A stretch of DNA of 64,000 bases from a bacterium (lineage in GTDB: Bacteria > Ratteibacteria > UBA8468 > B48-G9 > DTJG01), in the NCBI GenBank assembly GCA_021800535.1, contig JAJYYV010000001.1, positions 84,641-148,640 of the forward strand. The letters run 5' to 3'. Below the pieces are notes generated by a model. It was not told the origin of the DNA, did not search any database, and saw only the letters and a list, made by a program, of their open reading frames with translations. How positions within the stretch are numbered: position 1 is the stretch's first letter; each line of letters begins with the position of its first letter. Shown here in pieces: positions 12,904-60,085 of the stretch. The position numbers and the translations under genes were made by a program.

Positions 12904-12919
12904 TATTATCTAAGGAATT

Positions 12920-13915
12920 ATGAAAAAACAAGAATTTAAAAAAGGTGAAATAATTATTTACCAAAATCCACAAGGGTTTGAAATTCAAGTGAAACTTGAA
13001 CAAGATTCTGTATGGTTAAATTCTCATCTTATTGCTAAACTTTTTAATGTTAACAGACCTGCGATTGTTAAGCATATCAATAATATTTATAAAGCCGGGG
13101 AATTAGATAAAAAATTAACCTGTTCTGTTTTGGAACAGGTTGCTGCTGATGAAAAGATACGCAAAATGAATCTTTATAACCTGGATATGATTATTTCTGT
13201 TGGTTACCGTGTTAATTCCAAACAAGCCACTCAATTTCGCATTTGGGCAACCAAAATTTTAAAAGAACATTTAGTTAAAGGATACACTCTTAATGATAAA
13301 CGCCTTTTGCAATTCCAAATTCATCTTAAAGAACTACAAGAAGCAATTTCGTTTTTACAGGAAAAATCTAAATATAAATTGCTTGCAGGACAGGAGCAGG
13401 AAATTTTATACCTTCTTTCTAACTACTCAAAAACACTAACGCTTTTAGAACAATATGACAAGGAAAAATTATCCCTGATTAAAAAAACAAAAGGAAAATT
13501 TATCTTGAAATATGATGAAACAAAAAAAATTATTGATGAGATTAAAAAAGAATTAATTGCTAAAAAAGAAGCCAGTGAACTTTTTGGGCAGGAAAATAAC
13601 AATAAGTTTAAAGGGATATTAGGAAATATTTATCAAACTTTTGGCAATAAGGAACTATACTCATCACTTGAAGAAAAAGCAGCTCATCTTTTATATTTTG
13701 GAATTAAAGACCATCCCTTTGTGGATGGGAACAAACGAATCTCTTCTTTTTTATTTATCTATTTTTTAGATAGGAATAATTATCTGTATAAATATAGCGG
13801 AGAAAAGAAAATTAATGATAATGCTTTAACATCATTGGCACTTTTAATAGCCATAAGCAATCCTGATGAAAAAAATAAACTTATTAAAATTATTACTAAT
13901 TTGTTAATAACTTGA
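12920..13915 (+). CDS. RhuM-like N-terminal domain fused to a Fic/Doc domain
   Basis: N-terminus matches the RhuM family (YQNPQGFEIQV...NLDMIISVGYRVNSKQATQFRIWATKILKEHLVKGY); the C-terminal Fic motif is HPFVDGNKRISSF. Confidence 0.75.
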   Translation: MKKQEFKKGEIIIYQNPQGFEIQVKLEQDSVWLNSHLIAKLFNVNRPAIVKHINNIYKAGELDKKLTCSVLEQVAADEKIRKMNLYNLDMIISVGYRVNSKQATQFRIWATKILKEHLVKGYTLNDKRLLQFQIHLKELQEAISFLQEKSKYKLLAGQEQEILYLLSNYSKTLTLLEQYDKEKLSLIKKTKGKFILKYDETKKIIDEIKKELIAKKEASELFGQENNNKFKGILGNIYQTFGNKELYSSLEEKAAHLLYFGIKDHPFVDGNKRISSFLFIYFLDRNNYLYKYSGEKKINDNALTSLALLIAISNPDEKNKLIKIITNLLIT

Positions 13916-24667: not shown

Positions 24668-25738
24668 ATGGATAAAAAAACAGTCCTAATAATTCTTAAT
24701 CTGATAAATAATATTGGATATTCAAAGCTTCAACAATTAAAAAACCAGTCTGGCGGCACAGAAAATATTCTTTCTCTTCCACCTGAAATAATTAAAAATA
24801 TTTTACCAGAAACTACAGCATATAAACTAACAAACTGGAAAACTTTGCCATGGGAAAAAGAATTAGAAGAAATAGAAAAAAAGAAAATAAATATTATAAC
24901 CATTGAAGATGAAAATTACCCATATCTTTTAAAACAAATTCCAAGTCCTCCAATAGTTTTATATGTCCAAGGCAGACTATCCCCTGATGATTTATGTCTT
25001 GGCATTGTTGGAACAAGAATGCCTTCAATATATGGAATATCCATGGCAGAAAAATTTTCTTCAGAATTAGCCTGTTATGGTATATGTATTATCAGCGGCA
25101 TGGCAAGAGGAATTGATTCTTTTGCGCATAAAGCATGTCTTAAGGTCAAAGGAAAAACAATTGCCGTAATTGGCGCAGGATTTAATAATATATATCCTGC
25201 TGAAAATATAAAACTTTTTGAAGAAATCGTAAATACCGGCGCGGCTATTTCTGAATTTTCTCTCAATACTTTTCCCTATAAAACAAATTTCCCCAGAAGG
25301 AACAGGATAATATCAGGATTAAGCAAAGCAGTGTTGATTATTGAGGCAGGTATTAAAAGCGGAGCACTCATAACTGCGCATATGGCAGTGGAACAAAACA
25401 GGGATGTCTTTGTTCTTCCTTCAGATGCAAACAGACTAACAGGAAAAGGCAATAACCAGCTGATTAAAGAAGGTGCATTCCTTGTGGAAAATGTCCAGGA
25501 TATCATTGAAAATCTTGGGATTGAAAAAGAACAAAAATCAGTTATTAAGGAGAAAAAACATATAAATCTGACAGAAGAGGAAAAAACAATAACAGATATT
25601 TTAAAAGGGAAATGTCTGCACTTTGAAGAACTCATTCTTTTAACAGGGATGTCAGCCCAAAATCTTATGCAGATTCTGACTTCTCTTGAACTTAAAGGTG
25701 CTGTCACTTCAAAATCCAACAACTTCTTTGAATTATAA
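24668..25738 (+). CDS. dprA: DNA processing protein DprA (Smf)
   Basis: GMARGIDSFAHKA Rossmann-like DprA core. Confidence 0.85.
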   Translation: MDKKTVLIILNLINNIGYSKLQQLKNQSGGTENILSLPPEIIKNILPETTAYKLTNWKTLPWEKELEEIEKKKINIITIEDENYPYLLKQIPSPPIVLYVQGRLSPDDLCLGIVGTRMPSIYGISMAEKFSSELACYGICIISGMARGIDSFAHKACLKVKGKTIAVIGAGFNNIYPAENIKLFEEIVNTGAAISEFSLNTFPYKTNFPRRNRIISGLSKAVLIIEAGIKSGALITAHMAVEQNRDVFVLPSDANRLTGKGNNQLIKEGAFLVENVQDIIENLGIEKEQKSVIKEKKHINLTEEEKTITDILKGKCLHFEELILLTGMSAQNLMQILTSLELKGAVTSKSNNFFEL

Positions 25739-28131: not shown

Positions 28132-29253
28132 ATGAAAAAAGATGATAATGGTTTTAAACAATTTGTAACATCTCTTGTAAAAAAACACGGAACACCTCTT
28201 TTTTTAATATCTGAGTTAAAATTAAAAGAAAGGGTTGAATATTTTAAAAAATTATTGCCTGGTGTTGTTCCATATTATGCAGTAAAAGCAAATCCATCCC
28301 TGGAAATTCTGAAAACTTTTGCATCTCTGGGACTATATTTTGATGTGGCATCAGAAAAAGAGATAGAAACTATACTCAAACTCGGTGTATCACCTGATAA
28401 ACTTATCCTTTCCAATTCCGTAAAATCCCCACCTCTTATAAAATTTGCCAAAGAAAAAAATGTTTTACTCTTTACATTTGACTCTGAATACGAAATACAA
28501 AAAATAGCAAAATATGCACCGGGCAGCAGGGTGATAGCAAGAATAAAAGTTCCAAATGTTGGCTCTGTGGTTGAATTATCTCTTAAGTTTGGACTGGAAC
28601 CGGAAGATGTTATTCCATTGCTTGTAAAGGCAAAAAAACTTGGTCTAAAACCTGAAGGTATTAGTTTTCATGTAGGTTCCCAGTGTACAAGGGTGGAAAA
28701 CTATTTAGAATCTTTTGAACTTACATCAATGATTTTAAAAGATGCCCAGGCAAAAAACATATCCTTGAATATTGTAGATATTGGCGGAGGATTTCCCATA
28801 AAACATTTTAATCACGAGGAAGGTATTTTTGAAGAAATGGCTCCTGTTTTAAATAAAGAACTGCACCGTATATTTAATAAATCCATTCAGATAATTGGAG
28901 AACCAGGAAGAGCTCTGGTAGGCCCATGCTGTACTCTGGTAATGAGGGTAATTGGTAAATCCATTAGAAAAAACAAACACTGGTATTATCTGGATGACGG
29001 AGTTTATGGATGTCTTTCAGGAATTATTTATGACCATTGCAAATACCAGTTTAATGTTTTTAAAAAAGGCTCTGTACAAATTTCAACACTTGCAGGCCCA
29101 ACCTGCGACTCTTTTGATATTATATCTGTCAGTGAAGACCTTCCTGAATTAGAAATAGGGGACATCATTTATGTAAAAAACATTGGAGCCTATTCAATAG
29201 CAACTGCAACAAATTTTAACAGCATACCTGTGGCAAAAACTATAGTGATTTAA
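28132..29253 (+). CDS. PLP-dependent Orn/DAP/Arg decarboxylase family 2 protein (ornithine decarboxylase-like)
   Basis: PYYAVKANP PLP-lysine motif; 373 aa. Confidence 0.75.
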   Translation: MKKDDNGFKQFVTSLVKKHGTPLFLISELKLKERVEYFKKLLPGVVPYYAVKANPSLEILKTFASLGLYFDVASEKEIETILKLGVSPDKLILSNSVKSPPLIKFAKEKNVLLFTFDSEYEIQKIAKYAPGSRVIARIKVPNVGSVVELSLKFGLEPEDVIPLLVKAKKLGLKPEGISFHVGSQCTRVENYLESFELTSMILKDAQAKNISLNIVDIGGGFPIKHFNHEEGIFEEMAPVLNKELHRIFNKSIQIIGEPGRALVGPCCTLVMRVIGKSIRKNKHWYYLDDGVYGCLSGIIYDHCKYQFNVFKKGSVQISTLAGPTCDSFDIISVSEDLPELEIGDIIYVKNIGAYSIATATNFNSIPVAKTIVI

Positions 29254-29359
29254 TAAAATATAAACATAACACAATTTTTGGTAATGAGTTACCCTTATGT
29301 TATAATTAAATATATTTTTATTTTAATATCTTAAAATCAATATATTACCTATTATTAAC

Positions 29360-30538
29360 ATGAAAAAAAATTATAGAACAAGGACAGACCTAAAAAATTT
29401 ACCAGACTGGATGAAAAACAAAAAATGCCCGCACAAGGATAAATATCTTTCAGGAAAAAGAATTCTTTCAAAGGGTATAACAGGAAAAGAAAAATTAATT
29501 GATATTATAGATAATACATTTCTTGCTTACAATTCAGCCCGCCTGAAAGAGGCAGCCAAACTTTTTACAGAAAAAATGCTGGAGAACGATGTAACCGTGG
29601 GAATGAGTCTGGCAGGAGCTTTAACACCTGCGGGAATTGGTTGTTCCTGCATTATCCCTCTTATTAATGCAGGATTTGTTGACTGGATTGTAGCAACAGG
29701 CGCAAATCTTTATCATGACCTTCATTTTGCCTTTAATCTTCCTCTTTATAAAGGGTCTTTTGTTGTTGATGATACTGATTTAAGAAAAAATGATGTTGTA
29801 AGAATTTATGATGTTTTTTTAGGTTATACAGATTGTCTTATGAAGACAGATGAAATTCTCAGAAATATACTCATTCAACCTGAATTTCAGAAAGAAATGG
29901 GAACAGGGGAATTTTATCATCTGTTAGGGAAATATGCCTCTGGATGGGAGAAAAAAACCGGATTTAAAAATGTATCTGTTCTTGCTGCTGCATATAATGC
30001 AGGAGTTCCTCTTTACACAAGCTCACCAGGAGATTCAACAATTGGAATGAACATAGCAGGACTTGAACTTGAAGGTTTAAAATTAAGAATAAACTCTTCT
30101 ATTGATGTCAATGAAACAACCTCTTTTGTTCTGGAGGCAAAAAAGTCAGGAGGAAAATCTGCTGTATTATTAATAGGGGGAGGAAGCCCCAAAAATTTTA
30201 TTCTTCAGACAGAACCACAAATTCAGGAAGTATTAAAAATTAAAGAAGTCGGACAGGATTATTTTATTCAGATTACAGATGCCAGACCCGATACAGGCGG
30301 ACTTTCCGGAGCAACACCACATGAAGCGGTTTCCTGGGGAAAGGTAGACCCGGACAAACTTCCGGATGCAATTGTTTGTTATGTGGATTCTACCATTGCC
30401 CTTCCATTAATTACACATTATGCCCTTGCAAAAAGAAAAAAAAGAACATTAAAAAAATTATATTTTAAAAGAAAAGAATTATTTGAAAAATTAAAAAAAG
30501 AATATTTTCTTAATAACTTCTCTAAAAAAAATCAGTAA
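29360..30538 (+). CDS. Deoxyhypusine synthase-like protein (homospermidine synthase-like)
   Basis: MSLAGALTPAGIG and GGGSPKNF resemble the DHS fold; paired with the ODC-like gene. Confidence 0.55.
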   Translation: MKKNYRTRTDLKNLPDWMKNKKCPHKDKYLSGKRILSKGITGKEKLIDIIDNTFLAYNSARLKEAAKLFTEKMLENDVTVGMSLAGALTPAGIGCSCIIPLINAGFVDWIVATGANLYHDLHFAFNLPLYKGSFVVDDTDLRKNDVVRIYDVFLGYTDCLMKTDEILRNILIQPEFQKEMGTGEFYHLLGKYASGWEKKTGFKNVSVLAAAYNAGVPLYTSSPGDSTIGMNIAGLELEGLKLRINSSIDVNETTSFVLEAKKSGGKSAVLLIGGGSPKNFILQTEPQIQEVLKIKEVGQDYFIQITDARPDTGGLSGATPHEAVSWGKVDPDKLPDAIVCYVDSTIALPLITHYALAKRKKRTLKKLYFKRKELFEKLKKEYFLNNFSKKNQ

Positions 30539-30674
30539 TTGATTCATTGGTATACCTATCTTTTTTCAGAAACATCCTCAAGATTTTGACAAAAGGTCTT
30601 ATTTATTATAAATTAATATATATTAATTTAATGAATAATTACCTTGACTGGGATAATTATAAAAGGATTGATTT

Positions 30675-31841
30675 TTGTTGCATAAAATGCCCAGTCTACA
30701 AAATAAATTAAAGAAAGATCCAAAAATAATTTTTATTATTGTTATTTTTGTTTTTGTCTTTATTATTTTGTTGATATCTCACTTAACAGCAACTAAACAG
30801 CAAACACAAAATTCCAATCAAAATACAACAGGATTACTTGGTATATCAGGCATAACAGGTCAAATCTATAACAAAAAAATAGAGGCACAGGTAGGTAATG
30901 TTTCTAATAATATTCAAAATTTTCAGTCCCAATTAAATCTTCTTCAAAAACAAAATCAGGCATTAGAAGACCAGAATAAACTTCTAAATGGAGAAATTAC
31001 ACATCTTAATAGAACCGTAGACAAAAAAGTAGACAGAAAACTTGATGAGGCTATGGGTAAGATAGAAGCAAAAATATCAAACATTATTCCTTCTTCTCAA
31101 CAGGCGCCTGCACCACTTACACCACAACAGGAAAGATTACAGATTATTACTATTCCAAAGAAAAAAATAAAACAAACATCTTTTAATAACAAAGAGATTT
31201 ATTTACCAGCAGGGTCTTTTGTTCAAGGGACTTTGATAAGCGGAGTTTTTGCACCAGAAAATAAAACAACACCTCTGCCAGTGGTATTTTCTGTTAATCA
31301 GGCTTTTGATGGGCCTTCCGGGAGTAAGATACCTGTCAAGGGAATGCTTGGAATAGGAAAAGCACAGGCAGACATAAATTCACAAAGAGCAATCATTCAG
31401 GTTGTCAGACTTGCTTATGTATTTCCAGACGGACATGTATGGGAACAGAAAGTCAATGGCTGGGTATGTGGTTCAGATGATATTCTTGGAGTAAAAGGCA
31501 AACTTATTCAAAATACAGGCAAAGCATTAGCAGGTGCATTTCTATCAGGATTTTTATCAGGGACTTCACAGGCATTATCACAGGCAGAAACATCTACGCA
31601 GGAAACTACATCAGGCACTTATCAGACAAATGTTACAGGTAGCACTACAAAGTATGGTCTGTATTCAGGACTTGCCTCTGCGGCAGGAAATTTATCTAAC
31701 TATTATTCAGGCATGCTTAATCAAATAATAACGGCAATCAAAGTCAAAGCAGGAACACCAATAGAAATAATAATGGAAAAAGGAGTGACAATTGAGACTG
31801 GGAATAATTATAGCCCTTTTAGTAATGGCAATAATCAGTAG
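30675..31841 (+). CDS. VirB10/TraB/TrbI-like type IV secretion protein
   Basis: N-terminal TM helix, coiled coil, Pro-containing linker (QQAPAPLTPQQ), and a C-terminal domain with LPAGSFVQGTLISGVF...IPVKGMLGIG like the TrbI/VirB10 barrel; possible alternative start at 30687. Confidence 0.6.
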   Translation: MLHKMPSLQNKLKKDPKIIFIIVIFVFVFIILLISHLTATKQQTQNSNQNTTGLLGISGITGQIYNKKIEAQVGNVSNNIQNFQSQLNLLQKQNQALEDQNKLLNGEITHLNRTVDKKVDRKLDEAMGKIEAKISNIIPSSQQAPAPLTPQQERLQIITIPKKKIKQTSFNNKEIYLPAGSFVQGTLISGVFAPENKTTPLPVVFSVNQAFDGPSGSKIPVKGMLGIGKAQADINSQRAIIQVVRLAYVFPDGHVWEQKVNGWVCGSDDILGVKGKLIQNTGKALAGAFLSGFLSGTSQALSQAETSTQETTSGTYQTNVTGSTTKYGLYSGLASAAGNLSNYYSGMLNQIITAIKVKAGTPIEIIMEKGVTIETGNNYSPFSNGNNQ

Positions 31842-32193
31842 TGGTTGTGGAATGTCGCGCTCTATAAAAGAACATACCTCTATGGACAGGATTTATAGAA
31901 ACGCAGAAAAACAAGGAAACATTGATACAGCCACAGCAATAGCCCAGCAGTTAAAAATACACAGGGCTTTAGGATATGTCAAGCCGTATGTTCCTGTAAT
32001 CAATCCGCCTGTGGTGAAACGGGCTTGGATTGTCCCTCATGAAACAAAAGGTGGCGCATTGGTTGGCGGATACTGGGTATATGTCATAGTGAAAAAACCT
32101 TCCTGGTATATACATACACCAGAAGAAAATATGCCCTCAATCGTAATACCTTATGCAATAAAAAACACTAACAAGAAAAAGGAGAAGAAATAA
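31792..32193 (+). CDS. Small lipoprotein (VirB7/TraV-like by position)
   Basis: Lipobox AIISSGC; 133 aa; an alternative start at 31825 would reduce the overlap with the upstream gene. Confidence 0.5.
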   Translation: MRLGIIIALLVMAIISSGCGMSRSIKEHTSMDRIYRNAEKQGNIDTATAIAQQLKIHRALGYVKPYVPVINPPVVKRAWIVPHETKGGALVGGYWVYVIVKKPSWYIHTPEENMPSIVIPYAIKNTNKKKEKK

Positions 32194-32196
32194 AAA

Positions 32197-34605
32197 ATGA
32201 TAACAGAAAGCCAATGGAAGAAACTTTTTGATGAAGGAGAAAGCATAATAGATTATCTTCCTTATTATGCCTGGGAAGAAGAATTTTTTACTTTTGTAGA
32301 TGGAAGTATTGGCAAGGCTATGGTTATGCCTCAAATACCAGTGGAACTTAAAACAGACACAGAACTTGATGTTTTATCTTCACAGATAGAAGCCCTTATT
32401 ACAAGATTTAGACCAAATTTCACTTATCAGTTTATACTTCTTTCTACTGCTGACATTACAGATAAAATTGATAAGTATCAATCATACAAAGAAGCAGAAC
32501 CTTATGGCCAATCAAAGATTTTCTCACAGGGTAAGATAGACAACATTATAAAAGGGACAAAAGGATTTTTCAGGGAAGGGCCAACGACTTACTCTGTAAG
32601 GGACTTGCAATTAATTCTTACAATAAGATTTTTCCCGCCACACAGCAAAATGGATATTATTTCAACAGATTTTGTAAATGATGGACACAAACAGGAGCAA
32701 ATTCTTTTAGACCACTATAATGAATTATGTTCTGTCTTACAAAACCTTAATATAAAGTATCAGGAAATACAGGGAGAACAATTAGTAAGAATTTTAAGTC
32801 AGATGGTCGCGCCAAACAGACCACCACGAAATTACAATCCTACAAGACCTATCAGACAACAGGTTTTCCTTACTAATCCGTTAGTAGATGGAGAAGGTTT
32901 TCTTTTAGATGGAGTTAAAACAAACATTATCTCATTGGCAGAACTTCCTTTACAGACATTTACAGGAATGTTTTGTGTGGCAAGAGATAGAACCTCTATC
33001 ATTGACCTATCAAGCAACATAGCCATGGTGGTAAATATTGCATGTAATGACCAGACAGAAGAAGTAGGAAAAGTCAAACAAAAAGGGACTTTTGCTTTCA
33101 TACACAGGGCAAATATCCTTGGAGACAGGTCAGTAGAAGCAGACCTAATCAAACAGGATTCTGACATGGTTATAGAAAAAGTCTTTGGTCAGGGCAAAAA
33201 AATTCTTTCTGTTTCAGTGCATTTTATTATCTGGAAGGATAAAGATACAAACATTGAAAACGAAGTAATCAACACCCTTCATTTTCTTGGTTGTGAAGGA
33301 GTAAAAGAAAATCTAATAGGGGCAAGTCTGTTTTTAACTTGTCTTCCTTTTGGTTATGACTATAAATTTGAGAAGTTTTATCAGAGAAGCCATAAAGTCT
33401 TGTCTGATAATGTTAGTGATATAGTTCCTATATGGGGTTCAGCCACAGGTTCAAGCACACCAGCGACTATTTTCACAAACAGACAAGGCAGAATATTTTT
33501 CTTTGACCCATTTGATAGCAATAGTCCGCATTTCCTTGCCGTAGGAATAACAGGAGCAGGGAAAAGTGTGTTCTGTAATAATCTTATTATGGAAGGACTA
33601 CGGCTTGGTTCACATATTTTTGTTATAGACAGAGGCGGTTCTTACCAAAGAATATGTGAAGTCAATGGCGGGCAATACATAGAAATAGACCCGAATAATC
33701 CTACATGTATAAATCCATTTACTTCTTCTCTTAATCCAGAAAATCTTGCTTTTTTGGTTATGCTTATATCAGAGATGGCAAGCGGTGGTGAAGATTCTGA
33801 AAGATTAAGAAGAGAAGAAAGGTCTATAATCCAGGGCGCAATCCAAAACGCTTATTTAAAGGTGGAAGGAAGGCAGGTAACCTTGTCTGATGTGGTAGAG
33901 CAATTAAACAAAGATGAATTACTTGGGAAAAGAATAAGTTTAAAATTATTACCATTTTTAAAGAAGGGGCATTATGGCGGATTTTTTGATGGTGAAAATC
34001 AACTGGATATAAAAAACAATTTTGTGGTATTTGAGTTAGGAGCACTTGGCGGTTGGAAGGATTTACAAACGGTTCTTTTACTTGCGATTATGTATTTGCT
34101 TACAGGAAAGGTCGCAGGTATGAAAGATGTAAGGAAATACCTCTTGATAGATGAGGCGTGGACGCTTTTAAATACAGAAAACACAGCACAATTTATTGAA
34201 AATGCTTTTAGGACATTTAGAAAATATAGATGTTCTGTTGGAGCAATCTCACAGCAGATACAGGACTTTTTTAATACAAAAGCAGGTAATTCCATTATGG
34301 CAAATGCAGTTAATAGAATTTATCTTGCACAAAACCCGGAAGTGGTTGAGAGTATGAAAGAGCAACTTGGATTAAACAGCATACAGGTAAAAGTCTTAAA
34401 GAGTATAAAAACAATCAAAGGCAGGTATTCAGAAGCACTAATCAAGACAGATGAAACTTCTGGTGTAGTGCGACTAATACTTGACCCTGCCAGTTATTGG
34501 TTATTTACCACAGACCCAAAGGATATTTCAAAACTTAATGAGGCAATAAGACAAACTGGTAATATAGAAAAAGCAATAGAAACACTTACAAGGAGACAAA
34601 CATGA
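32197..34605 (+). CDS. VirB4/TraC/TrbE-family type IV secretion ATPase
   Basis: Walker A GITGAGKSVF; Walker B LLIDEAWTLL (DEAW box); 802 aa; N-terminal region typical of the CagE/TrbE/VirB4 family. Confidence 0.7.
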   Translation: MITESQWKKLFDEGESIIDYLPYYAWEEEFFTFVDGSIGKAMVMPQIPVELKTDTELDVLSSQIEALITRFRPNFTYQFILLSTADITDKIDKYQSYKEAEPYGQSKIFSQGKIDNIIKGTKGFFREGPTTYSVRDLQLILTIRFFPPHSKMDIISTDFVNDGHKQEQILLDHYNELCSVLQNLNIKYQEIQGEQLVRILSQMVAPNRPPRNYNPTRPIRQQVFLTNPLVDGEGFLLDGVKTNIISLAELPLQTFTGMFCVARDRTSIIDLSSNIAMVVNIACNDQTEEVGKVKQKGTFAFIHRANILGDRSVEADLIKQDSDMVIEKVFGQGKKILSVSVHFIIWKDKDTNIENEVINTLHFLGCEGVKENLIGASLFLTCLPFGYDYKFEKFYQRSHKVLSDNVSDIVPIWGSATGSSTPATIFTNRQGRIFFFDPFDSNSPHFLAVGITGAGKSVFCNNLIMEGLRLGSHIFVIDRGGSYQRICEVNGGQYIEIDPNNPTCINPFTSSLNPENLAFLVMLISEMASGGEDSERLRREERSIIQGAIQNAYLKVEGRQVTLSDVVEQLNKDELLGKRISLKLLPFLKKGHYGGFFDGENQLDIKNNFVVFELGALGGWKDLQTVLLLAIMYLLTGKVAGMKDVRKYLLIDEAWTLLNTENTAQFIENAFRTFRKYRCSVGAISQQIQDFFNTKAGNSIMANAVNRIYLAQNPEVVESMKEQLGLNSIQVKVLKSIKTIKGRYSEALIKTDETSGVVRLILDPASYWLFTTDPKDISKLNEAIRQTGNIEKAIETLTRRQT

Positions 34606-35024
34606 AAAAGATAGTTTTAATTGTTTTTCTAACATTAGGAATTTCTTTATGTTATGCAGGCACATACGCAAACACAAATATTTCTTCTAATACAAACACA
34701 GACACGCAAAACCAACACAAGCAGTCAGGAGTTGTAAGGTTTTTTCAGGATTGGTTTTCTCCTATGAGTAGAAAAGAAAAGAAGGCTTATGAGAAAGGAT
34801 ATAAAGCAGGTGTCAGAGAGCAGTTAAAGAAATTCAAAGAAAATTTTGTAGATAATCAGGTTCCTTACTATTACTGGCAGACGCCTATTGTCCAGAAAGT
34901 AAAAGTCCCGGGCCAGATTGTTAATGGTCTTTTTATACCCAGCCATTATGAGTATGTCATTATTATCCCGGGAAAATGGCAAAAAGAATATGGCTATCCA
35001 ATAGCCAAAGGAGATAACCAATGA
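34602..35024 (+). CDS. Small secreted protein of unknown function
   Basis: N-terminal signal peptide; 140 aa; translationally coupled on both sides. Confidence 0.45.
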   Translation: MKKIVLIVFLTLGISLCYAGTYANTNISSNTNTDTQNQHKQSGVVRFFQDWFSPMSRKEKKAYEKGYKAGVREQLKKFKENFVDNQVPYYYWQTPIVQKVKVPGQIVNGLFIPSHYEYVIIIPGKWQKEYGYPIAKGDNQ

Positions 35025-36646
35025 GAAAAATCATTATATCTTTAATACTTGTTTTCTTCACAGGAGCATTCTTGCATGCGCAGGAATTAAGCAATAGCAA
35101 AAAACAGGAAATAGTCAGTCAGGAGTGGAAGGAATTGATGGGACAATACCAACAGGTAGTCAATGAGAAAAAGATACCTTATTCTATTAAAAATGAGGTT
35201 TATAGACAAACAGGACAGGTCATTACAGGGAAGAAATACACTCCAAAGCCATTTTATAGAATAAAAAAGGTGGTATTGCCAGAGCCAGCATATTTAAAAA
35301 ATATCATTTATATGAATATCGGTTCAGCACCTTTACGGATTGTATTATCAGAATTGGCTACACAAATAGGAGTACCTATAATTACAGAAAACGGGGTTAA
35401 GCCAGATATAGAAATACAAGGCAATTTTAATGGCCAGAGTGCAAAAGATGTTTTGGACAATCTATGTAATCTTTTGGATTACTCCTGGGACGCAAGGAAA
35501 GGGAAGATTTATATTAGTCAATATGGTTCAGAAATGTTTGAGTTGTCTATTCCATATATGTCCACACAATTTTCCAATCAGATTTATTTATCTGCAAATG
35601 GGGTAAATGGCGGGAGTAATAATTATGAAAATGGTATGAATAACAATACCACTTCAACAAATACCATGACCACTAATAATAATTATAACAATTCTTCAAG
35701 TTCAAATGGTAATTCAGGACCAAATTCTTATGTTAATATTTATGCTAACAATGTTAATCTATACAAAGAAATAAAAAGCAATCTTAAAAGCCTTATCAGT
35801 AAAAAAGGTAAATATGCTATAAACAAAGACGCAGGGACAATTTTTGTTTATGATAAAGTCAGAAATCTTAAAAGAATTTCAAAGTATTTTAAAAAATTAA
35901 ATGAAGTTCTTTCAGAAGAAATACTTGTAAAAGCAAAGGTTGTAGAGGTAACGCTTAACAATCAATTCCAGGGTGGTGTAAATTGGAATTTACTTACCTC
36001 TGGTTCAAGTTTCCAGACAAATTTCAATGTTGTTTCTTCTGGTCCTGTTTTACTATTTAAGAGTAGACAAGCCTCAACAACAGGGACAACGACAAATGGC
36101 ATGGAAGAAATAATTAATCTTTTAAGTACACAGGGAAAAACCTCTATTCTTTCAGAGCCTCAAATAACGGTTCTTAATGACCAGCCAGCAATAATTCAGA
36201 TGGCAGATATTGAATCATATATAGCGCAATCAAGTCAGTATATAACTCAAACAGGAAGTCAGGTATCTGTAACCCCGGGAGAAGTAATGAATGGTGTAAA
36301 TATGACTATAATTCCTAAAATATCAAAACAGGGAATTTTCTTAAATGTAATGCCTTCTGTTACCATGGTAAATCAGATACAAACTATAAATACCGGTAAT
36401 GGCACAGAAATACAATTACCGCAGGTTGCTTCCCGGGCATTAAACACCTCTATAAGGATAAAAAATGGAGATATTATAGCCATAGGCGGGCTTATATACA
36501 ATCAAAAACAAAAACAAAATCAGGGAATACCTGTTTTATCAGATATACCTCTTATAGGGTGGCTATTTAGACAGCAAAACAATCAGGTAACCAAAGATGA
36601 ATTAATAATCTTCTTAACCGCAAGGAGAATAAAGTGGAGTTCATAA
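35021..36646 (+). CDS. Secretin (T2SS/T4P-type outer membrane channel family)
   Basis: Signal peptide; N/S/T-rich low-complexity linker; C-terminal secretin signature GDIIAIGGLIYNQ...GIPVLSDIPLIGWLFRQQNNQVTKDELIIFLTARRI. Confidence 0.75.
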   Translation: MRKIIISLILVFFTGAFLHAQELSNSKKQEIVSQEWKELMGQYQQVVNEKKIPYSIKNEVYRQTGQVITGKKYTPKPFYRIKKVVLPEPAYLKNIIYMNIGSAPLRIVLSELATQIGVPIITENGVKPDIEIQGNFNGQSAKDVLDNLCNLLDYSWDARKGKIYISQYGSEMFELSIPYMSTQFSNQIYLSANGVNGGSNNYENGMNNNTTSTNTMTTNNNYNNSSSSNGNSGPNSYVNIYANNVNLYKEIKSNLKSLISKKGKYAINKDAGTIFVYDKVRNLKRISKYFKKLNEVLSEEILVKAKVVEVTLNNQFQGGVNWNLLTSGSSFQTNFNVVSSGPVLLFKSRQASTTGTTTNGMEEIINLLSTQGKTSILSEPQITVLNDQPAIIQMADIESYIAQSSQYITQTGSQVSVTPGEVMNGVNMTIIPKISKQGIFLNVMPSVTMVNQIQTINTGNGTEIQLPQVASRALNTSIRIKNGDIIAIGGLIYNQKQKQNQGIPVLSDIPLIGWLFRQQNNQVTKDELIIFLTARRIKWSS

Positions 36647-37650
36647 GACAAAAAAATACATTTTATATTTTCTCTGAAGTGAGAATACAAAAAGAAACAG
36701 AGAAACAGAATTTAGAAAAAATACAGGACCCAAATAATTTCTTTTGTTATGAAGAAATAGGTGAAAGCACATATCAGATTTTTCTTTTACCGGTATCAAT
36801 TATAGAAAAAATCAACCATCAGGTAGAACCTGGTAAGGCAATAATTATTCCGTATCAGGTGGCTATAAGACATTTGATTGGAACAAGCCAGCCTATTTTA
36901 TTTTTGCATGTTATAGACTCAACGCTTTTAATTACAGGAATAGGCATACACGGTAATCAGGTGTCTTTAACCACACAGATAGACCTTTCTCAACCAAACC
37001 TATCAAACCTTAAAGATATTGTTAATATTACTATTACTGATTTAAAAACAATTTTTAGAGTAGATAATTTTGTAGTTGCTATAAATAGTCCGGATATAGC
37101 AGAACAATTAAAAGACATAGAAGTCCAAGTAATAAGATGTCCTCATAACTTACCAACAGGAAATCTTCCAAGATTTATTTTGCCCCAGCATATAGAATTT
37201 CAAAAAGCACAGGAGGAAAAAAAGCAAATAAAAATAGCAGGCGGGGCAGTTGTAATTTTAATGTTGTTGGCAGGGGCATATTTTTACCAGACCAGACAAC
37301 AAGTCAATCAATTATATCAGCAAAGAAATCTATTACAAAAGCAAGTGCAGATAGAGCAGATAGCCTTTATGAACGCGCAACAACAGGATATAGCAAAATA
37401 TTTTACTTCTACAGAGAAAAACAAAGTAATCTCTATCATTTCCCGCTTATCTCTATTACCAGCAGGATATACTTTCAAGAATTTAGTAATAAAACAAATA
37501 CCAAATGGTAATTATCAGGCAGATATTTTTATATCTGTAATAGCACCTGGAATGTCCGCACGGCCCCTGAAAAGTGTATTTCCTGATGGAGTTATTACCC
37601 CTCTTTTCAAGAGCAACGGGCAGGAGTATAGAATTCACTATTCGTTATGA
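36634..37650 (+). CDS. Bitopic inner-membrane protein with GspL/PilM-PilN-like topology
   Basis: About 200 aa cytoplasmic region, one TM (IAGGAVVILMLLAGAYFY), then a periplasmic coiled coil (QVNQLYQQRNLLQKQVQIEQ); assignment is by architecture only. Confidence 0.4.
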   Translation: MEFIRQKNTFYIFSEVRIQKETEKQNLEKIQDPNNFFCYEEIGESTYQIFLLPVSIIEKINHQVEPGKAIIIPYQVAIRHLIGTSQPILFLHVIDSTLLITGIGIHGNQVSLTTQIDLSQPNLSNLKDIVNITITDLKTIFRVDNFVVAINSPDIAEQLKDIEVQVIRCPHNLPTGNLPRFILPQHIEFQKAQEEKKQIKIAGGAVVILMLLAGAYFYQTRQQVNQLYQQRNLLQKQVQIEQIAFMNAQQQDIAKYFTSTEKNKVISIISRLSLLPAGYTFKNLVIKQIPNGNYQADIFISVIAPGMSARPLKSVFPDGVITPLFKSNGQEYRIHYSL

Positions 37651-37651
37651 T

Positions 37652-38323
37652 ATGAATATAAAAATTGGAAAACTGTATAAAATCGGCTCAGATTTTGATG
37701 GTATACTTGGAAATGTTCCTGTAACACTCAAAAAATATAAGGATAGCTTTGTTATATTATTGAATATTTCAAAAATAAAAGATATCACTAAAAAACAATT
37801 TATTTCTTATCCTCTGTTTTATTTTGTTTCGTCAGTATTTATATATGAAGGAAAAGCCCGAATAGATATTTTAGATATAAAAATAAATGGTAATCTTAAA
37901 AAGATTCCGTTTTTTATAGAAAAACTTTGTCAAATCTACATGGATAATCCTGTTCTTTCAACAATAGATGTAATTATACCCTGTCCACATTCCTCTGATA
38001 ATAAAATTGAACTAACAAAAATGTTATGTGTTGGATTAAGCAAAAACATAAACAAACCTGTTCTATTAAATATTTTGCAAAGAGTAAGAAATTTGGAAAA
38101 ACCTCAAGTGTATTTATCCCCAAAAGAAAGACTTGAAAATGTAAAAGGGGCTTTTACCATAGATAAAAAAGAACAGGTAAGAAATAAAATATGTTTACTG
38201 ATAGATGACATAATAACAACAGGGGCGACTGCAAATGAATGTAGTAATCTTTTATTATCCGCCGGAACTAAAAAAATATATCTTATTACAATTGCAAAAC
38301 CTTTAAACTCTGTGTTTATCTAA
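37652..38323 (+). CDS. comFC: ComFC-like competence phosphoribosyltransferase; start moved from 37574 to 37652
   Basis: DVIIPCPHSSDNK and CLLIDDIITTGATANE (PRTase fold, ComF family); the ATG at 37652 follows the upstream stop, and the longer ORF overlaps the previous gene. Confidence 0.7.
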   Translation: MNIKIGKLYKIGSDFDGILGNVPVTLKKYKDSFVILLNISKIKDITKKQFISYPLFYFVSSVFIYEGKARIDILDIKINGNLKKIPFFIEKLCQIYMDNPVLSTIDVIIPCPHSSDNKIELTKMLCVGLSKNINKPVLLNILQRVRNLEKPQVYLSPKERLENVKGAFTIDKKEQVRNKICLLIDDIITTGATANECSNLLLSAGTKKIYLITIAKPLNSVFI

Positions 38324-41161: not shown

Positions 41162-44100
41162 TTATACTGTAACATTTTTTCCGCAACAATGTTTATATTT
41201 TTTCCCACTGCCACAAGGACAGGGTTGATTTCTTCCTATTTTTTGTCCAACTTTTATTGGTTGTGTTTCAATTATATTACCTGTTGTTTTAACAGAAAAA
41301 GATTCTGATGGTTGTTGGTCTGTTTCCTGGGTCTGAAGAGTTTCAAACTGTTCAAATTCCTGATGGGTAAACATAGATGGAGCAAGAACTTTTTTAGGGC
41401 TATATATTTGTTCAGAAGGTTCTACTTTTATTTTAAAAATAGTAGAAAGAATCTCTGTTTTAATTGAAGAATACATTTGTTCAAAAAGTAAAAAAGCCTC
41501 CTGTTTATAAGCAACAAGAATATCTCTTTGGGCATAAGAACGAAGATTAATTCCTTCTCTAAGGTCATCTATGGCTCGTAAATGCGATTTCCATTTTTGG
41601 TCTACCTCCTGGAGAAAAATATATTTTATAATTTCATTGAAAGAAGGACCCAGGTGTTGCTTTTTTTGTAAAAATTCTTCATTGATTTTTTTCCTTGTGT
41701 CTTCCAGAGTGGTATCTCTCCAGAATATTTGTTCTTTTATATTTTCTGGTATGGACAGATTAATGTCTGTATCAAAAATATTTTTTAATTGTTTAGAAAG
41801 TTTTTCAGGATGCCATTCTTCAATTTTTGAGCTTTCTTTAAGAAATTCATTAAAAAGATCATCTATTGTTTCGTTTATAAATGGGAACAGATAATGTTCT
41901 ATATCCTGAGTTTCCAAAATGTCTCTTCTTAGTTGATATATTACTTTTCTTTGTTGATTTAAAACATCATCAAAATCTATAAGGTGTTTTCTTATTTCAA
42001 AATTTCTTCCTTCCACCCGTTTTTGAGCCATAGTGATTTGTTTTGTTATTATAGGATGTGTAATTTTTTCACCTTCTGGGAGTTTTCCCATAATTCCGGT
42101 AAGTCTTTCAGACCCAAAAATTCTTAGCAGGTCATCTTCTAAAGAAAGATAAAAACTGGCGGAGCCCGGGTCTCCCTGTCTGCCGGCACGCCCCCTTAAT
42201 TGATTATCAACCCTTCTTGCTTCATGTCTTTCTGTCCCAATTATATGAAGCCCCCCCAAAGAAATAACTTTTTCATGGTCTTTTTCCCATGGTTTTAAAT
42301 TTTTTTCAAGGGTTTCATTATATATAGCTCTAAATTCTTCCGGACTTTTTTCCATTTCTTCCCTGGCAGTTTTCCATTCTTCTTCAATGGCGCTGTGTTT
42401 TTTCTCATATTCTTCCCTGGCAAAGGAAATTTCTTTTTCGTACTGTGAATGAAGATTTTCATAATTTTCACTGGCAGAAAGATATTCTTTCTGTTTTGTT
42501 GAATATTCCTTATCTCCAAGAATAAAAATAATGTCGGATTCCAGAGTATCTAATCCAGAAATAAAATTTTTATATTCAGCCTGGAATTTATCAAGAAAAT
42601 TTTTAATAAATTCTTCATTTTGTTCTATTTTGAGTTCAAATACCTGTTTTTCTGAGATTTCAAGAAAATCTTTTATTTTTTTAGTTCTGCCTGAAAAATC
42701 TTTAAATGAAGCAGAATTTTTCATTTCGTCTGACAAGACAGATGTAATACTATCCTGATATCCTTTGATGCTTACAAATAAATTTTCAATCAGTTGTTCT
42801 AATTCTTTTTTTACATTAGATGCTTGTCCTTGTGCTATTTCACATAAGAGAATAATCTGATTTGCTCTTTCTTCTATATCTTTTCTTATAAATATTCCGT
42901 GTTTTTTTCTTATAAATTCTTTGGTTCCTTCATATTCATGGTATGCCTTACTACGGGATTCTTTAAAATCTTTTAATAGTTCTGGTTTTTTTTGATATTC
43001 ATTCTGGGATTGGGCGTTTTTCAGGGCATTTTCTGTTTCCATGTATCTTTCTTTTAGGATTAAAATTTTAGGTTCTGTTCTGAGAAATTCTTCTTCAGCT
43101 TTAGCAATAAAAATAGTTCTTTCCAATTGTTCTTTTATTTTTGTATCTATCTGGGCGAAAATTTTTTCTTTTTCTGTCAAAGAATCTTTTGCTTGTTCTA
43201 TAGAAGATTTGTATTTTTTATCAATATCTTCCAGAGATTTTTTATAGGCCTCCTCAAGTTCATTTAAGACTTCATGAAATAATTTTTTTTGCGGATGGGT
43301 TTTTGATGAGGATTTTATTTTAGATTTCTGAGACCAGATGATTCTTATTGTTTCTTCTCTGGACAAAACTTCAGGATTACCTCCAAGAATAATATCAACA
43401 CCTCTTCCCGCCATTTGTGTTGCAATGGTAACGGCTCCGGGTTTTCCTGCCTGGGCAATAATTGCTGCTTCTGCTTCATGATTTTTCCCATGAAGAACCT
43501 GGTGAGGTATATTTTTATGCCGTAATATTTTACTTAACTTTTCTGCTTTTTCAATAGAAACAGTACCTACAAGAACTGGCCGGGAATTTTTATACATCTG
43601 TTCTATTTCATTTACTGCAGAATTAAATTTTTCTTTTTCTGTTTTATATATTTCATCATTAAATTCTATTCTCTTTAATGGTTTATTTGTTGGTATAGCA
43701 ATTACATTTAATTTATATATTTCTTTAAACTCTGCGGATTCTGTAAGAGCTGTACCTGTCATTCCTGCAAGTTTTTTATAAAGTCTGAAATAATTTTGAA
43801 AAGAAATAGTTGCAAGAGTTTGATTCTCGCTTTCTATTCGTACACTTTCTTTGGCTTCTATTGCCTGATGAAGTCCATCACTCCATCGTCTCCCGGGCAT
43901 CAGTCTTCCTGTAAATTCATCTACAATGATTACTTCTCCATTTTTAACAACATAGTCTTTATCTCTAACAGAATAAGTATGCGCCCTGAGAGATTGATTG
44001 ATTAAATGGACCATATCAGTGTGGGCTCCATCATAAAGATTTTCCACTCCAAGAAATCTTTCGCATTTTTTCAATCCATCATCTGTAAGGGAAACAATCT

Positions 44101-45004
44101 GGTTTTCTTCGTCTAAAATGTAGTCCATATCTTTATTTAATTTTCTGACGACTTTATCTATATCATAATAAAGATTGACAGATTCTTCAGATGGACCTGA
44201 AATAATTAAAGGAGTTCTCGCTTCATCTATAAGAATACTATCCACTTCATCAACAATTGCGTAATTTAAATCCCTTTGGACAATAGATTCTTTGGTTATG
44301 GCCATATTATCTCTTAGATAATCAAACCCAAATTCACTTCCCACTCCGTAGGTTATATCACAGGCATAAGCTTCTTTTCTGGGTATGGTTCTTAAATAAA
44401 GATATCTTGAATCTGCCGGAAGAAATGCCGGGTCAAAAGTAAAAGCAGACATTTCAGATTGTCCACTGGTCTGAAAATAAGAGACAATACATCCAACAGA
44501 AAGGCCAAGGTTATAATAAATAGGACCCATCCATTGAGTATCTCTTTTGGCTAAATAATCATTAACAGTTACAAGATGACAACCCTGGCCGGTTAATGCA
44601 TTTAAATAAACTGGAAGTGTTGCTACAAGGGTTTTTCCTTCTCCTGTGGACATTTCTGCGATATTTCCATAATGAAGCGCAATTCCTCCAAGAATCTGGA
44701 CATCAAAATGGCGCATATTTACAAACCTTCTTGCAGATTCTCTTACAAGTGCATAAGCTTCCGGCAGAATATCTTCTAAGGTTTCCCCTTTGGAAAGTCT
44801 GTCTTTGAATTCTAAGGTTTTATTTTTCATCTCTTCATTGGAAAATTTTTTTATTTTTTCTTCTAATTCATTAATTTTATGCAGAAGAGAAATCATTTGT
44901 TCCATAAAAGCATATCTATCCCTGTTGAGAAGTCTGTTGATAAAAAGTTTTGTTCCTGGATTTAGTTTTCTTAAAGAAGCAAGAAGGGAGTCGTAATAAT
45001 CCAT
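41162..45004 (-). CDS. secA: Preprotein translocase SecA with a roughly 370 aa charged coiled-coil insertion in the NBD2 variable region; start trimmed from 45082 to 45004
   Basis: Walker A MSTGEGKT; DEVDSILIDEA; insertion lies between GRGVDIILGGNPE and VISLGGLHIIGTERHEARRVDNQLRGRAGRQGD; C-terminal zinc site CPCGSGKKYKHCCG; RBS GGAGGTAAC lies 7 nt upstream of the 45004 ATG; the longer ORF would cover tRNA-Phe. Confidence 0.85.
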   Translation of the reverse strand: MDYYDSLLASLRKLNPGTKLFINRLLNRDRYAFMEQMISLLHKINELEEKIKKFSNEEMKNKTLEFKDRLSKGETLEDILPEAYALVRESARRFVNMRHFDVQILGGIALHYGNIAEMSTGEGKTLVATLPVYLNALTGQGCHLVTVNDYLAKRDTQWMGPIYYNLGLSVGCIVSYFQTSGQSEMSAFTFDPAFLPADSRYLYLRTIPRKEAYACDITYGVGSEFGFDYLRDNMAITKESIVQRDLNYAIVDEVDSILIDEARTPLIISGPSEESVNLYYDIDKVVRKLNKDMDYILDEENQIVSLTDDGLKKCERFLGVENLYDGAHTDMVHLINQSLRAHTYSVRDKDYVVKNGEVIIVDEFTGRLMPGRRWSDGLHQAIEAKESVRIESENQTLATISFQNYFRLYKKLAGMTGTALTESAEFKEIYKLNVIAIPTNKPLKRIEFNDEIYKTEKEKFNSAVNEIEQMYKNSRPVLVGTVSIEKAEKLSKILRHKNIPHQVLHGKNHEAEAAIIAQAGKPGAVTIATQMAGRGVDIILGGNPEVLSREETIRIIWSQKSKIKSSSKTHPQKKLFHEVLNELEEAYKKSLEDIDKKYKSSIEQAKDSLTEKEKIFAQIDTKIKEQLERTIFIAKAEEEFLRTEPKILILKERYMETENALKNAQSQNEYQKKPELLKDFKESRSKAYHEYEGTKEFIRKKHGIFIRKDIEERANQIILLCEIAQGQASNVKKELEQLIENLFVSIKGYQDSITSVLSDEMKNSASFKDFSGRTKKIKDFLEISEKQVFELKIEQNEEFIKNFLDKFQAEYKNFISGLDTLESDIIFILGDKEYSTKQKEYLSASENYENLHSQYEKEISFAREEYEKKHSAIEEEWKTAREEMEKSPEEFRAIYNETLEKNLKPWEKDHEKVISLGGLHIIGTERHEARRVDNQLRGRAGRQGDPGSASFYLSLEDDLLRIFGSERLTGIMGKLPEGEKITHPIITKQITMAQKRVEGRNFEIRKHLIDFDDVLNQQRKVIYQLRRDILETQDIEHYLFPFINETIDDLFNEFLKESSKIEEWHPEKLSKQLKNIFDTDINLSIPENIKEQIFWRDTTLEDTRKKINEEFLQKKQHLGPSFNEIIKYIFLQEVDQKWKSHLRAIDDLREGINLRSYAQRDILVAYKQEAFLLFEQMYSSIKTEILSTIFKIKVEPSEQIYSPKKVLAPSMFTHQEFEQFETLQTQETDQQPSESFSVKTTGNIIETQPIKVGQKIGRNQPCPCGSGKKYKHCCGKNVTV

Positions 45005-45024
45005 AAATTTGTTACCTCCAATAT

Positions 45025-45096
45025 TGCCGGGGGGCAGAATCGAACTGCCCACGCCAGCCTTTTCAGGGCTGCGCTCTACCACTGAGCTACCCCGGC
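45025..45096 (-). tRNA. tRNA-Phe (anticodon GAA)
   Basis: Reverse complement reads GCCGGGGTAGCTCAGTGGTAGAGCGCAGCCCTGAAAAGGCTGGCGTGGGCAGTTCGATTCTGCCCCCCGGCA: 7-bp acceptor stem, D arm GCTC/GAGC, anticodon loop CTGAAAA, T loop TTCGATT; CCA is not encoded. Confidence 0.9.
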
Positions 45097-59821: not shown

Positions 59822-60085
59822 ATGCACGAACTATCCATAGCGCAGTACTTATTTGATTTTTGTAAAACAATAGAACAGCAATATAAACCAAAGGAAATTA
59901 CAAAAATAAATCTTTCTGTTAATCCTTTAAGCTGTCTTAATGAAGATATTTTAGGGTTTTTGTTAAAAAATATTGCAGAATCAGAAAAAAATATCGCACT
60001 ACAAAATGTGAAGATACATATAGAGAAAAATAATTCTCCTGATAGCAGAGAGATTACAGTGAAAGATATAGAAATAGAGGAGTGA
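59822..60085 (+). CDS. hypA: HypA-like hydrogenase nickel-insertion protein lacking the CxxC...CxxC zinc site
   Basis: Starts MHELSIAQ as HypA does; only 87 aa and without the two CxxC pairs. Confidence 0.55.
   Translation: MHELSIAQYLFDFCKTIEQQYKPKEITKINLSVNPLSCLNEDILGFLLKNIAESEKNIALQNVKIHIEKNNSPDSREITVKDIEIEE

Follow-up and report, generated by a model that had tools for sequence, protein, structure and literature searches.

A seven-gene operon beside dnaA that combines F-type conjugation proteins with a secretin and a ComF-like protein

Secretins serve as outer-membrane pores in type II and type III secretion, in type IV pili and in filamentous phage export, and type IV secretion systems (T4SSs) build a VirB7/9/10 channel of their own. 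An operon that brings genes of both kinds together raises the question of what machine it encodes and where that machine came from. The operon studied here lies in a 64,000-nucleotide (nt) stretch of DNA from an uncultivated Omnitrophota bacterium (contig JAJYYV010000001.1, positions 84,641 to 148,640; “the window”) and specifies, in this order, TraB, TraV, TraC, a small exported protein (X), a secretin, a bitopic protein (Y) and a ComF-like phosphoribosyltransferase (PRT). A reading made from the sequence alone had noted seven co-directional open reading frames (ORFs), whose positions we confirm (Table 1), and had interpreted them as a chimeric DNA-translocation machine fitting no established system type. 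The latter statement is borne out: each part belongs to a known family, and the combination is not described for T4SSs in the literature searched. The notion of a chimera put together de novo had to be abandoned, since the operon belongs to a clade that includes complete F-type clusters with type IVb pilus genes and, within it, is the most strongly reduced. The explanation that we favor, with moderate confidence, is that the operon arose by domestication and heavy reduction of a conjugative cluster specific to Omnitrophota and their elements, from which an envelope-spanning subset was kept.

Profile searches identify the first and third genes as encoding VirB10 and VirB4 homologs, as previously proposed. 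TraB matches PF03743 (1e-19) and the NCBIfam model for F-type TraB (1e-17), and the only PDB chains that it matches by sequence are those of TraB in the F/pED208 core complex (7spb/7okn, 5e-15). The protein has an N-terminal transmembrane (TM) helix (predicted, residues 18-36), a coiled coil and a C-terminal TrbI domain (176-371). It is 73% identical to the ortholog from the closest relative, locus L001, with a ratio of non-synonymous to synonymous divergence (dN/dS) of 0.10. TraC matches TIGR02746 at 5.5e-119 (398 bits, short of the equivalog cut-off of 567 bits), PF19044 (1.3e-45) and PF11130 (5.8e-14), and aligns with plasmid TraC over its full length at approximately 25-26% identity. Its Walker A (GITGAGKS) and Walker B (LLIDEAW) motifs are intact and invariant throughout the clade. 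The nearest TraC, 80% identical, is that of L001, in an Omnitrophota metagenome-assembled genome (MAG), and the dN/dS against it is 0.09. Database proteins identical to those of the operon come from a Candidatus Omnitrophica MAG and from a 197-kb JGI contig. The small lipoprotein encoded between the two, taken for a VirB7/TraV-like protein in the sequence-only reading, proved to be one: it matches PF09676 (1e-7, model positions 82-128), carries the lipobox ISSGC and has a dN/dS of 0.14 relative to L001. Thus, TraB, TraV and TraC are homologous to proteins of the F-type T4SS (F, pED208; PDB 7spb/7spc), and the traB-traV-traC order is that of the F-type operon.

Relatives were gathered from genome and metagenome scans, and every ORF was labeled by BLASTP. 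They fall into one TraC clade with four architectures, types A to D, the present operon being of type D, the most reduced. Type A is the commonest, with 47 loci fetched, many of them from Omnitrophota MAGs and one from the complete genome of Candidatus Velamenicoccus archaeovorus LiM. Its genes run in the order TrbC-like pilin, TraL, TraE, TraK, TraB, TraV, TraC, X, secretin and Y, followed by three small ORFs, a PilB-type ATPase, a PilC-type platform protein, a PilS-type IVb pilin, pilin-like ORFs and TraU. Upstream, in V. archaeovorus LiM, lie genes for TraG_N, a Replic_Relax protein and a TraD-like coupling protein. By its predicted gene content, type A comprises a complete F-type conjugative set in which a type IVb pilus is embedded. 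The type A cluster, approximately 20 kb long, was seen at L022 (NZ_CP019384.1:602710-625178) and at about 45 other loci (e.g., L003, L010 and L019); it is carried by the predatory V. archaeovorus, and we found no mention of it in the Omnitrophota literature searched.

Type B clusters consist of genes for a DPBB protein, TrbC, TraL, TraE, TraK, TraB, TraV, TraC, an X-secretin fusion and Y, and of three small ORFs the last of which encodes a domain that we call z76; their flanks look mobile, with PDDEXK, methylase and staphylococcal nuclease (SNase) genes. Type C runs from TrbC to Y and has, 0.6-2 kb downstream, a gene for a ComF-like PRT fused to z76, with an SNase gene after it and ParA and MerR genes upstream. 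An SNase-family gene comes right after the type C PRT gene at L164:6157-6678; another is found at L005:17461-17979, downstream of the type B cluster at a distance of about 2 kb. No PilB, PilC or PilS was found in types B and C (contigs of at most 48 kb, of which at most approximately 22 kb each were examined), and secretin and Y are kept beside TraC in both. A neighbor-joining tree of TraC, built without support values, places type A as sister to ((D,B),C), with sequences from Binatia, Planctomycetota and others outside the clade. No phage or IMG/VR relatives were found. One type B cluster, with a TraC 45% identical, sits on a contig binned into a Candidatus Micrarchaeia MAG (L009, JAVZXS010000008.1), and TraC-like genes that are more distant (24-26%) were seen in bins of Iainarchaeum, Woesearchaeota and other DPANN (L073-L084). 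These could result from mis-binning or represent elements shared with archaeal hosts.

The type D operon was found whole in only one other Omnitrophota MAG, that of L001, where it likewise ends at DciA-dnaN-dnaA. Parts of it were recovered from L002 (TraB to X) and from two short contigs, L168 (the Y-ComF-DciA end) and L169 (the secretin-Y-ComF end). Between L001 and the window, synonymous divergence (pS) is saturated at 0.61-0.75 and non-synonymous divergence (pN) amounts to 0.12-0.28. The dN/dS values range from 0.09 to 0.23 for six operon genes, the dS of Y being too saturated to compute, and from 0.11 to 0.18 for DnaA, DnaN and DciA. By these comparisons, all seven operon genes are under purifying selection, and their divergence, similar to that of the neighboring housekeeping genes, fits vertical descent.

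These data bear on the idea that the operon belongs to an integrative conjugative element as its ordinary Tra module, or else is what remains, decaying and without function, of such an element. The type A relatives are full conjugative-type clusters, and types B and C lie amid ParA, PDDEXK, methylase and SNase genes; a complete F-type set surrounds these genes in the relatives, though not at the present locus. Here, housekeeping flanks extend for more than 25 kb on each side and genes for an integrase, a relaxase, a coupling protein or further Tra proteins are not seen; all seven ORFs are intact with their motifs conserved; the low dN/dS values are measured against a relative with saturated synonymous sites; and the position next to DciA is repeated in L001 and L168. 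We consider this explanation extremely unlikely. The operon is kept by selection, being neither an element's module nor a decaying remnant.

How a secretin came to be associated with the T4SS genes is suggested by X. The sequence-only reading described X as a small secreted protein. It does carry a signal peptide, and its identity can now be refined: the signal peptide is followed by an N/T/Q-rich linker and a domain resembling the C-terminal domain of TraV. Comparison of the X and TraV families with hhalign gave a probability of 97.6% (E 3.3e-12, 93 columns, covering the TraV C-terminal domain), and on this profile evidence X is a TraV paralog. In the F system, the TraV C-terminal domain binds TraK in the outer ring (PMC8770708). 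The lipobox of X, found in types A and C, is not kept in the present operon. In five loci (L005, L009, L086, L092 and L137), four of type B and one a type A variant, the X domain is fused to the N-terminus of the secretin (hmmsearch E 1e-13 to 1e-17). Moreover, an X-like gene directly follows traC, the secretin being absent, in two clusters from outside the clade (L042, from Binatia, and L049, from a deltaproteobacterial MAG). The latter finding suggests that X is an old T4SS part behind which the secretin-Y pair was inserted; together with the fusions, it indicates that the secretin is physically linked to a T4SS component.

From its position, X could have been guessed to be a pilotin of the BfpG/PilM(R64) type, a candidate rejected because the profile comparison makes it a TraV paralog that predates the secretin. 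A second TraV-like gene located after traC, with no secretin, was seen at L042:4828-5397 (Binatia), at L049:5763-6074 (the deltaproteobacterial MAG) and at L034:2206-2628 (Zixibacteria). TraV duplication is, as far as the profiles indicate, a wider feature of this F-like T4SS branch.

The claim that the fifth gene encodes a genuine secretin holds: the protein matches PF00263 at 9e-36 (123.4 bits against a cut-off of 27.5). It further matches MshL (4.5e-59) and PilN-IVB (TIGR02520, 8e-39), both below the models' own cut-offs. Its best PDB match is BfpB (9u5s, 1e-21), the virion export secretin 7ofh being a weak match, and it is approximately 30% identical to its closest plasmid matches, many of them annotated as PilN-family secretins. 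A signal peptide (N-terminal hydrophobic segment, residues 4-22) and an N/S-rich linker precede the secretin domain (368-535); a possible N0 domain (residues 103-165) gives weak matches only (FecR_C, 0.00095; T3S N0, 0.14). The dN/dS relative to L001 is 0.09.

Y had been described as GspL/PilMN-like, which is not seen in its sequence and is recovered at fold level in its predicted structure. No sequence family could be assigned to it by Pfam searches on 16 family members, a PDB profile search or tblastn against plasmids. It shows no sequence match to PF06864, the structural representatives of which are PilO2Bp and BfpC (PMC3984277). A word-index search with the family profile returned 2 proteins only, and just six relatives were found among 1.84 billion representative proteins. 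An AlphaFold2 (AF2) model, computed from an 8-sequence alignment of database proteins (mean confidence, pLDDT, 79.7), shows an N-terminal alpha/beta domain, a long helix with a single clear TM segment and a C-terminal alpha/beta domain. These would correspond to a cytoplasmic actin-like domain (residues ~1-170), a TM helix with coiled coil (184-253) and a periplasmic alpha/beta domain (259-337). Structural matches of the model include PilM (9.9), BfpC (8.9) and GspL (7.9), which supports, at fold level, the assignment of Y as a putative assembly protein of the PilO(R64)/BfpC/PilM/GspL type. By analogy with PilM, GspL and BfpC, the cytoplasmic domain of such proteins recruits the GspE/PilB ATPase in pilus and type II secretion systems.

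A secretin gene followed by that of a bitopic protein is the order of PilN-PilO and BfpB-BfpC, and T4SSs combined with type IVb pili are known from other elements, R64 and PAPI-1 among them. The present operon resembles the modules of the R64 thin pilus (pilL-V), PAPI-1 and the bundle-forming pilus of enteropathogenic Escherichia coli in that its secretin is closest to BfpB, PilN and MshL and in the predicted fold of Y, shared with PilO2Bp, BfpC and PilM. It differs from them in having no pilus ATPase, platform, pilins or peptidase in the window, in having a TraV paralog and no known pilotin ahead of the secretin, and in that the module lies inside an F-type tra operon rather than beside an I- or G-type system.

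The ComF-like protein consists of a z76 domain (residues 1-49; 37652-37798), a ComF hood and a PRT core with LLIDDIITTGAT. Alignment with canonical ComF shows D185, D186, T189, T190, T193, R160, N163 and other residues to be conserved. The AF2 model (pLDDT 83) is matched by Foldseek to PurF, to H. pylori ComF (7p0h, TMq 0.53) and to ShosT. A match to GntX (2e-12) reaches 47 bits against a cut-off of 304, and dN/dS relative to L001 is 0.23. The z76 domain is an uncharacterized segment of about 50-60 aa with the motif G.EYF.GY..N.PVLGF, for which Pfam has no family (nor has it one for the accessory proteins z114, z303, z71, z181 and z144). In type B, z76 is a stand-alone protein encoded by the last gene of the cluster (L005:15021-15251); in type C it is fused to the C-terminus of the PRT (P0027, residues ~182-231; BLASTP 6e-12); and in type D it forms the N-terminus of all five ComF proteins (hmmsearch; hhalign 92.9%, E 3.8e-7), where it occupies the place of the canonical ComF double zinc ribbon. 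L001 has an extra stand-alone copy 2.3 kb upstream of traB (5921-6127, - strand).

Is the ComF-like gene a chance neighbor, that is, a housekeeping comFC that happens to sit beside DciA-dnaN-dnaA, with the six genes upstream having nothing to do with DNA? Homologs of ComF occur very widely, the identity of canonical ComF proteins to the present one (34-37%) is almost as high as that of the type C PRT (39%), and the junction between ComF and DciA is conserved. Yet a related PRT gene lies downstream of Y in type C, in different and mobile-looking contexts; z76 occurs in the type B clusters as well as in the type C PRT and at the N-terminus of type D ComF; the zinc ribbon is lost only in the cluster-linked forms; and the gene starts 1-3 nt past the Y stop codon. 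The occurrence of z76 in three cluster-linked forms suggests that the ComF-like gene is an accessory of the cluster family, and we regard a chance association as quite improbable.

What might such a set of proteins do? We infer that they form one complex, in which the secretin would provide the pore through the outer membrane. X and TraV, each of which has a TraV C-terminal domain, would connect the secretin to the periplasm-spanning TraB. Y would constitute the inner-membrane platform, its cytoplasmic domain docking TraC, the only available motor, instead of an ATPase of the PilB type. On the cytoplasmic side the ComF-like protein would be at work, and z76 could be its docking or substrate-binding module. 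The substrate might be nucleic acid moved inward, for the ComF-like protein to receive or process. Transport of nucleic acid, probably import, is favored because the ComF family is linked to the handling of single-stranded DNA during transformation (PMC9005727) and because the parent machine moves DNA. A role of the operon in DNA uptake is plausible but unproven.

Several observations weigh against this interpretation. Only three T4SS proteins are left, and neither equivalents of VirB3, VirB6, VirB8 and VirB9 nor a pilin were found in the window by tblastn; no functional T4SS devoid of these parts is described in the literature searched. ComB, the one T4SS known to have been co-opted for uptake, needs nearly all VirB parts (PMC13395361). 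Nor did tblastn detect in the window any PilB- or PilC-type protein with which Y and the secretin could pair. As for the ComF-like protein, its match to TIGR00201 (3.2e-16) upholds the family membership claimed by the sequence-only reading, with a score, 59.8 bits, well below the cut-off of 233.55. The protein lacks the 4-Cys zinc finger, there being no Cys motif and no PF18912 in the five type D proteins, whereas PF18912 is present in the canonical ComF matches P0028, P0029, P0030, P0033 and P0034, and the Cys motifs are visible in the aligned sequence of P0031. In H. pylori ComFC the finger is needed for DNA internalization (PMC9005727). Finally, the PRT resembles the anti-phage PRTase toxins ShosT (2e-13) and PsyrT (5e-13) about as well as it does the ComF models.

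ComF and ShosT PRTases may possibly form one continuum of DNA-associated PRT-fold proteins. A defense-system interpretation of the operon was considered and rejected, as PADLOC gave no system-level match and recognized single domains only (the ShosT/PsyrT PRTase and a mad8/HerA P-loop).

The scarcity of parts is best appreciated by comparison with the F-type T4SS, from which the operon differs in having a full secretin and a PilO-like protein after traC. Of the F-type core, TraB and TraV are present and TraK, which types A to C possess, was not found in the window by tblastn. Queries from the related loci likewise gave no tblastn match in the 64 kb for TrbC, TraL, TraE, PilB, PilC, PilS or TraU. 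Pfam scans covered the ORFs in 1-49.9 kb and 59-64 kb of the window (49.9-58.6 kb being covered by tblastn only) and showed no member of the TraL/VirB3, TraE/VirB8, TraG/VirB6 or TraA/TrbC pilin families, no TraU, TraW, TraF, TraH or TraN, and no GspE-family ATPase, PilC-type platform, type IVb prepilin or prepilin peptidase; nor does a relaxase, type IV coupling protein, integrase or replication function adjoin the operon, its flanks being housekeeping. These searches agree with the earlier observation that the window holds no further T4SS, pilus or relaxase gene.

One way to account for the missing parts is that the operon is half of a split system, providing the outer-membrane and periplasmic part plus TraC and working with a type IVa or Tad pilus, or with unlinked TraL, TraE, TraK, TraG and pilin genes, encoded elsewhere. 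Y-type proteins normally bind a GspE/PilB ATPase and secretins normally pass a pilus, and both partners, present in type A, were not found in the window. Genes for type IVa and Tad pili are common in Omnitrophota (PMC10066038), and in H. pylori ComB11, too, is encoded apart from the comB operons. On the other hand, types B and C retain secretin and Y while equally showing no PilB, PilC or PilS in the contig parts examined; a second TraC-type cluster was not found in the closest type D MAG in the genome-collection scan; and the X-secretin fusion points to coupling with a T4SS rather than with a pilus. We judge the split arrangement unlikely.

The opposite possibility is that the operon suffices by itself. 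It would then be a third kind of DNA-uptake or translocation machine, in which a VirB4 ATPase rather than PilB/GspE drives transport through a secretin, a TraV-like adaptor bolts the pore to VirB7/VirB10-type parts and a ComF variant without zinc finger takes the substrate, all without a pilin or VirB3, VirB6, VirB8 and VirB9. We regard this stronger proposal as doubtful. In filamentous-phage export, an inner-membrane ATPase (pI, with pXI) coupled to the pIV secretin moves single-stranded DNA, and by analogy the operon might be a minimal ATPase-secretin machine of this sort. It differs in that its ATPase is of the VirB4 and not of the Zot/pI type, in that TraB, TraV and X have no phage counterpart and in that no phage genes lie nearby.

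The sequence-only reading had likened the operon to Helicobacter ComB. The ComB system is not known to have a secretin. The likeness lies in a chromosomal T4SS-derived gene set with a ComF-family protein, and DprA, in the same organism. The analogy is nevertheless weak: ComB keeps almost all VirB parts, plus ComB11 (PMC13395361), against TraB, TraV and TraC alone here, and the zinc finger is gone.

Transport could also proceed outward, the operon being a device for secreting protein or nucleic acid or for contact with a host or prey, in which the ComF-like enzyme would act on nucleotides and not on incoming DNA. Most T4SSs and secretins belong to export machines. Omnitrophota are predicted to be host-dependent (PMC10066038), with epibiotic or predatory lifestyles proposed; and the PRT fold, whose phosphoribosyl pyrophosphate loop is intact, could be catalytic and resembles the ShosT/PsyrT PRTases. 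Conversely, no coupling protein, relaxase or recognizable effector was seen in the operon or the window, the ComF family is otherwise tied to DNA uptake (PMC9005727), and the site beside dnaA, amid housekeeping genes, bears no sign of a predation island. Export strikes us as improbable, and we retain the view of a reduced conjugative cluster whose products would handle nucleic acid.

The operon's ORFs do not all overlap by 4-14 nt as initially thought. The TraC/X and X/secretin junctions (4 nt each) and the secretin/Y junction (13 nt) conform to this description; TraB and TraV overlap by 50 nt, TraV and TraC are separated by 3 nt, and Y and ComF are probably separated by 1 nt. The last figure assumes that ComF starts at ATG 37652, just past the Y stop codon, which is most likely because the 223-aa product is identical to the deposited protein and agrees with the gene call for the ortholog; the upstream GTG 37574 is a less probable start. 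For TraB, ATG 30687 is a possible start. A promoter-like site in the 137-bp gap upstream of traB constitutes weak evidence, such sites being no more frequent across the region than expected from shuffled sequence, and no convincing + strand terminators were found within the operon.

Table 1. Features of the operon and its immediate surroundings (positions in the window)
Feature	Position	Strand	Basis or remark
Seven-gene operon	30675-38323	+	all ORFs co-directional, almost without intergenic space
traB (388 aa, VirB10-like)	30675-31841	+	alternative start ATG 30687
traV lipoprotein (133 aa, VirB7-like)	31792-32193	+	lipobox and TraV C-terminal domain
traC (802 aa, F-type VirB4 ATPase)	32197-34605	+	profile matches, Walker motifs
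X (140 aa, exported, putative TraV paralog)	34602-35024	+	profile-profile comparison
Secretin (541 aa, type IVb pilus kind, BfpB/PilN/MshL-like)	35021-36646	+	profile and PDB matches
Y (338 aa, bitopic inner-membrane protein)	36634-37650	+	predicted structure
ComF-like phosphoribosyltransferase (223 aa)	37652-38323	+	mechanical ORF of 249 aa from GTG 37574
Promoter-like site TTGACA-17-TAAATT	30586-30614	+	consensus scan, 10/12 matches; in gap upstream of traB
dprA	24668-25738		position confirmed by Pfam scan
DciA/dnaN/dnaA	38316-41132	-	convergent with operon, directly downstream

Pfam scans confirm the chromosomal location beside dnaN-dnaA, with dprA upstream, and the flanking ORFs that they covered are housekeeping or metabolic only. 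Upstream are genes for an endonuclease III-like glycosylase, an M23 peptidase, an HD hydrolase, DprA, ThrS, an ArfB-like protein, an Orn/DAP decarboxylase and a deoxyhypusine-synthase-like protein; downstream, convergent with the operon, are those for DciA, DnaN, DnaA and SecA. In the closest relative, dprA is not found within 8.5 kb of the type D operon, QueE/QueC genes lying upstream there; linkage to dprA was therefore rejected as evidence for competence. The Orn/DAP-type decarboxylase and deoxyhypusine-synthase-like genes adjoin the 5′ side of the operon (28132-30538, + strand) and probably serve polyamine or homospermidine synthesis; this neighborhood is not shared with the closest relative, which carries QueE/QueC in its place.

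Other features of the window deserve mention. SecA is unusually long (41162-45096, - strand; a 1306-aa ORF, 1280 aa in the gene call), with large insertions between its conserved domains, and the 5′ end of the mechanical ORF overlaps a tRNA-Phe gene (45025-45096). At 12006-13915 (+ strand), genes for a nucleotidyltransferase (Polbeta/NTP_transf_2), a 122-aa ORF without family and a RhuM/Fic-domain protein lie between ABC transporter permease and ATPase genes, resembling an inserted toxin-antitoxin-like cassette. Genes for a formate-dehydrogenase-like molybdoenzyme, MobA, MoeA and formate-tetrahydrofolate ligase and, further on, HypB and HypF (3726-9966 and 60082-63075, + strand) fit the acetogenic or hydrogen metabolism reported for Omnitrophota.

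We found no description, in the literature searched, of an Omnitrophota cluster joining TraC to a secretin or of a VirB4-secretin-ComF system, of an F-type tra operon with a secretin module after traC, of a TraV-like adaptor or its fusion to a secretin, of a secretin and a PilO-like protein kept with VirB4 after loss of the pilus genes, or of a chromosomal seven-gene form with a z76-bearing ComF that lacks the zinc finger. The lineage suggests that a T4SS physically recruited a secretin, with a T4SS-derived TraV paralog standing before the secretin or fused to it, and that the secretin and its PilO-like partner outlasted the pilus genes. If so, the modular divide between the two great families of envelope machines is less strict than had been assumed. 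The seven-gene form appears as a natural minimal version, chromosomally fixed and evolving like a housekeeping locus, and would define which parts are sufficient for the function of the hybrid; a self-sufficient, VirB4-powered secretin machine, if real, would represent a new class. The biology of Omnitrophota, bacteria that are abundant, ultra-small and probably dependent on hosts, rests on genome inference; V. archaeovorus is the only predator described among them. A conserved machine for DNA transport or cell contact would bear on how these organisms exchange or scavenge nucleic acids.

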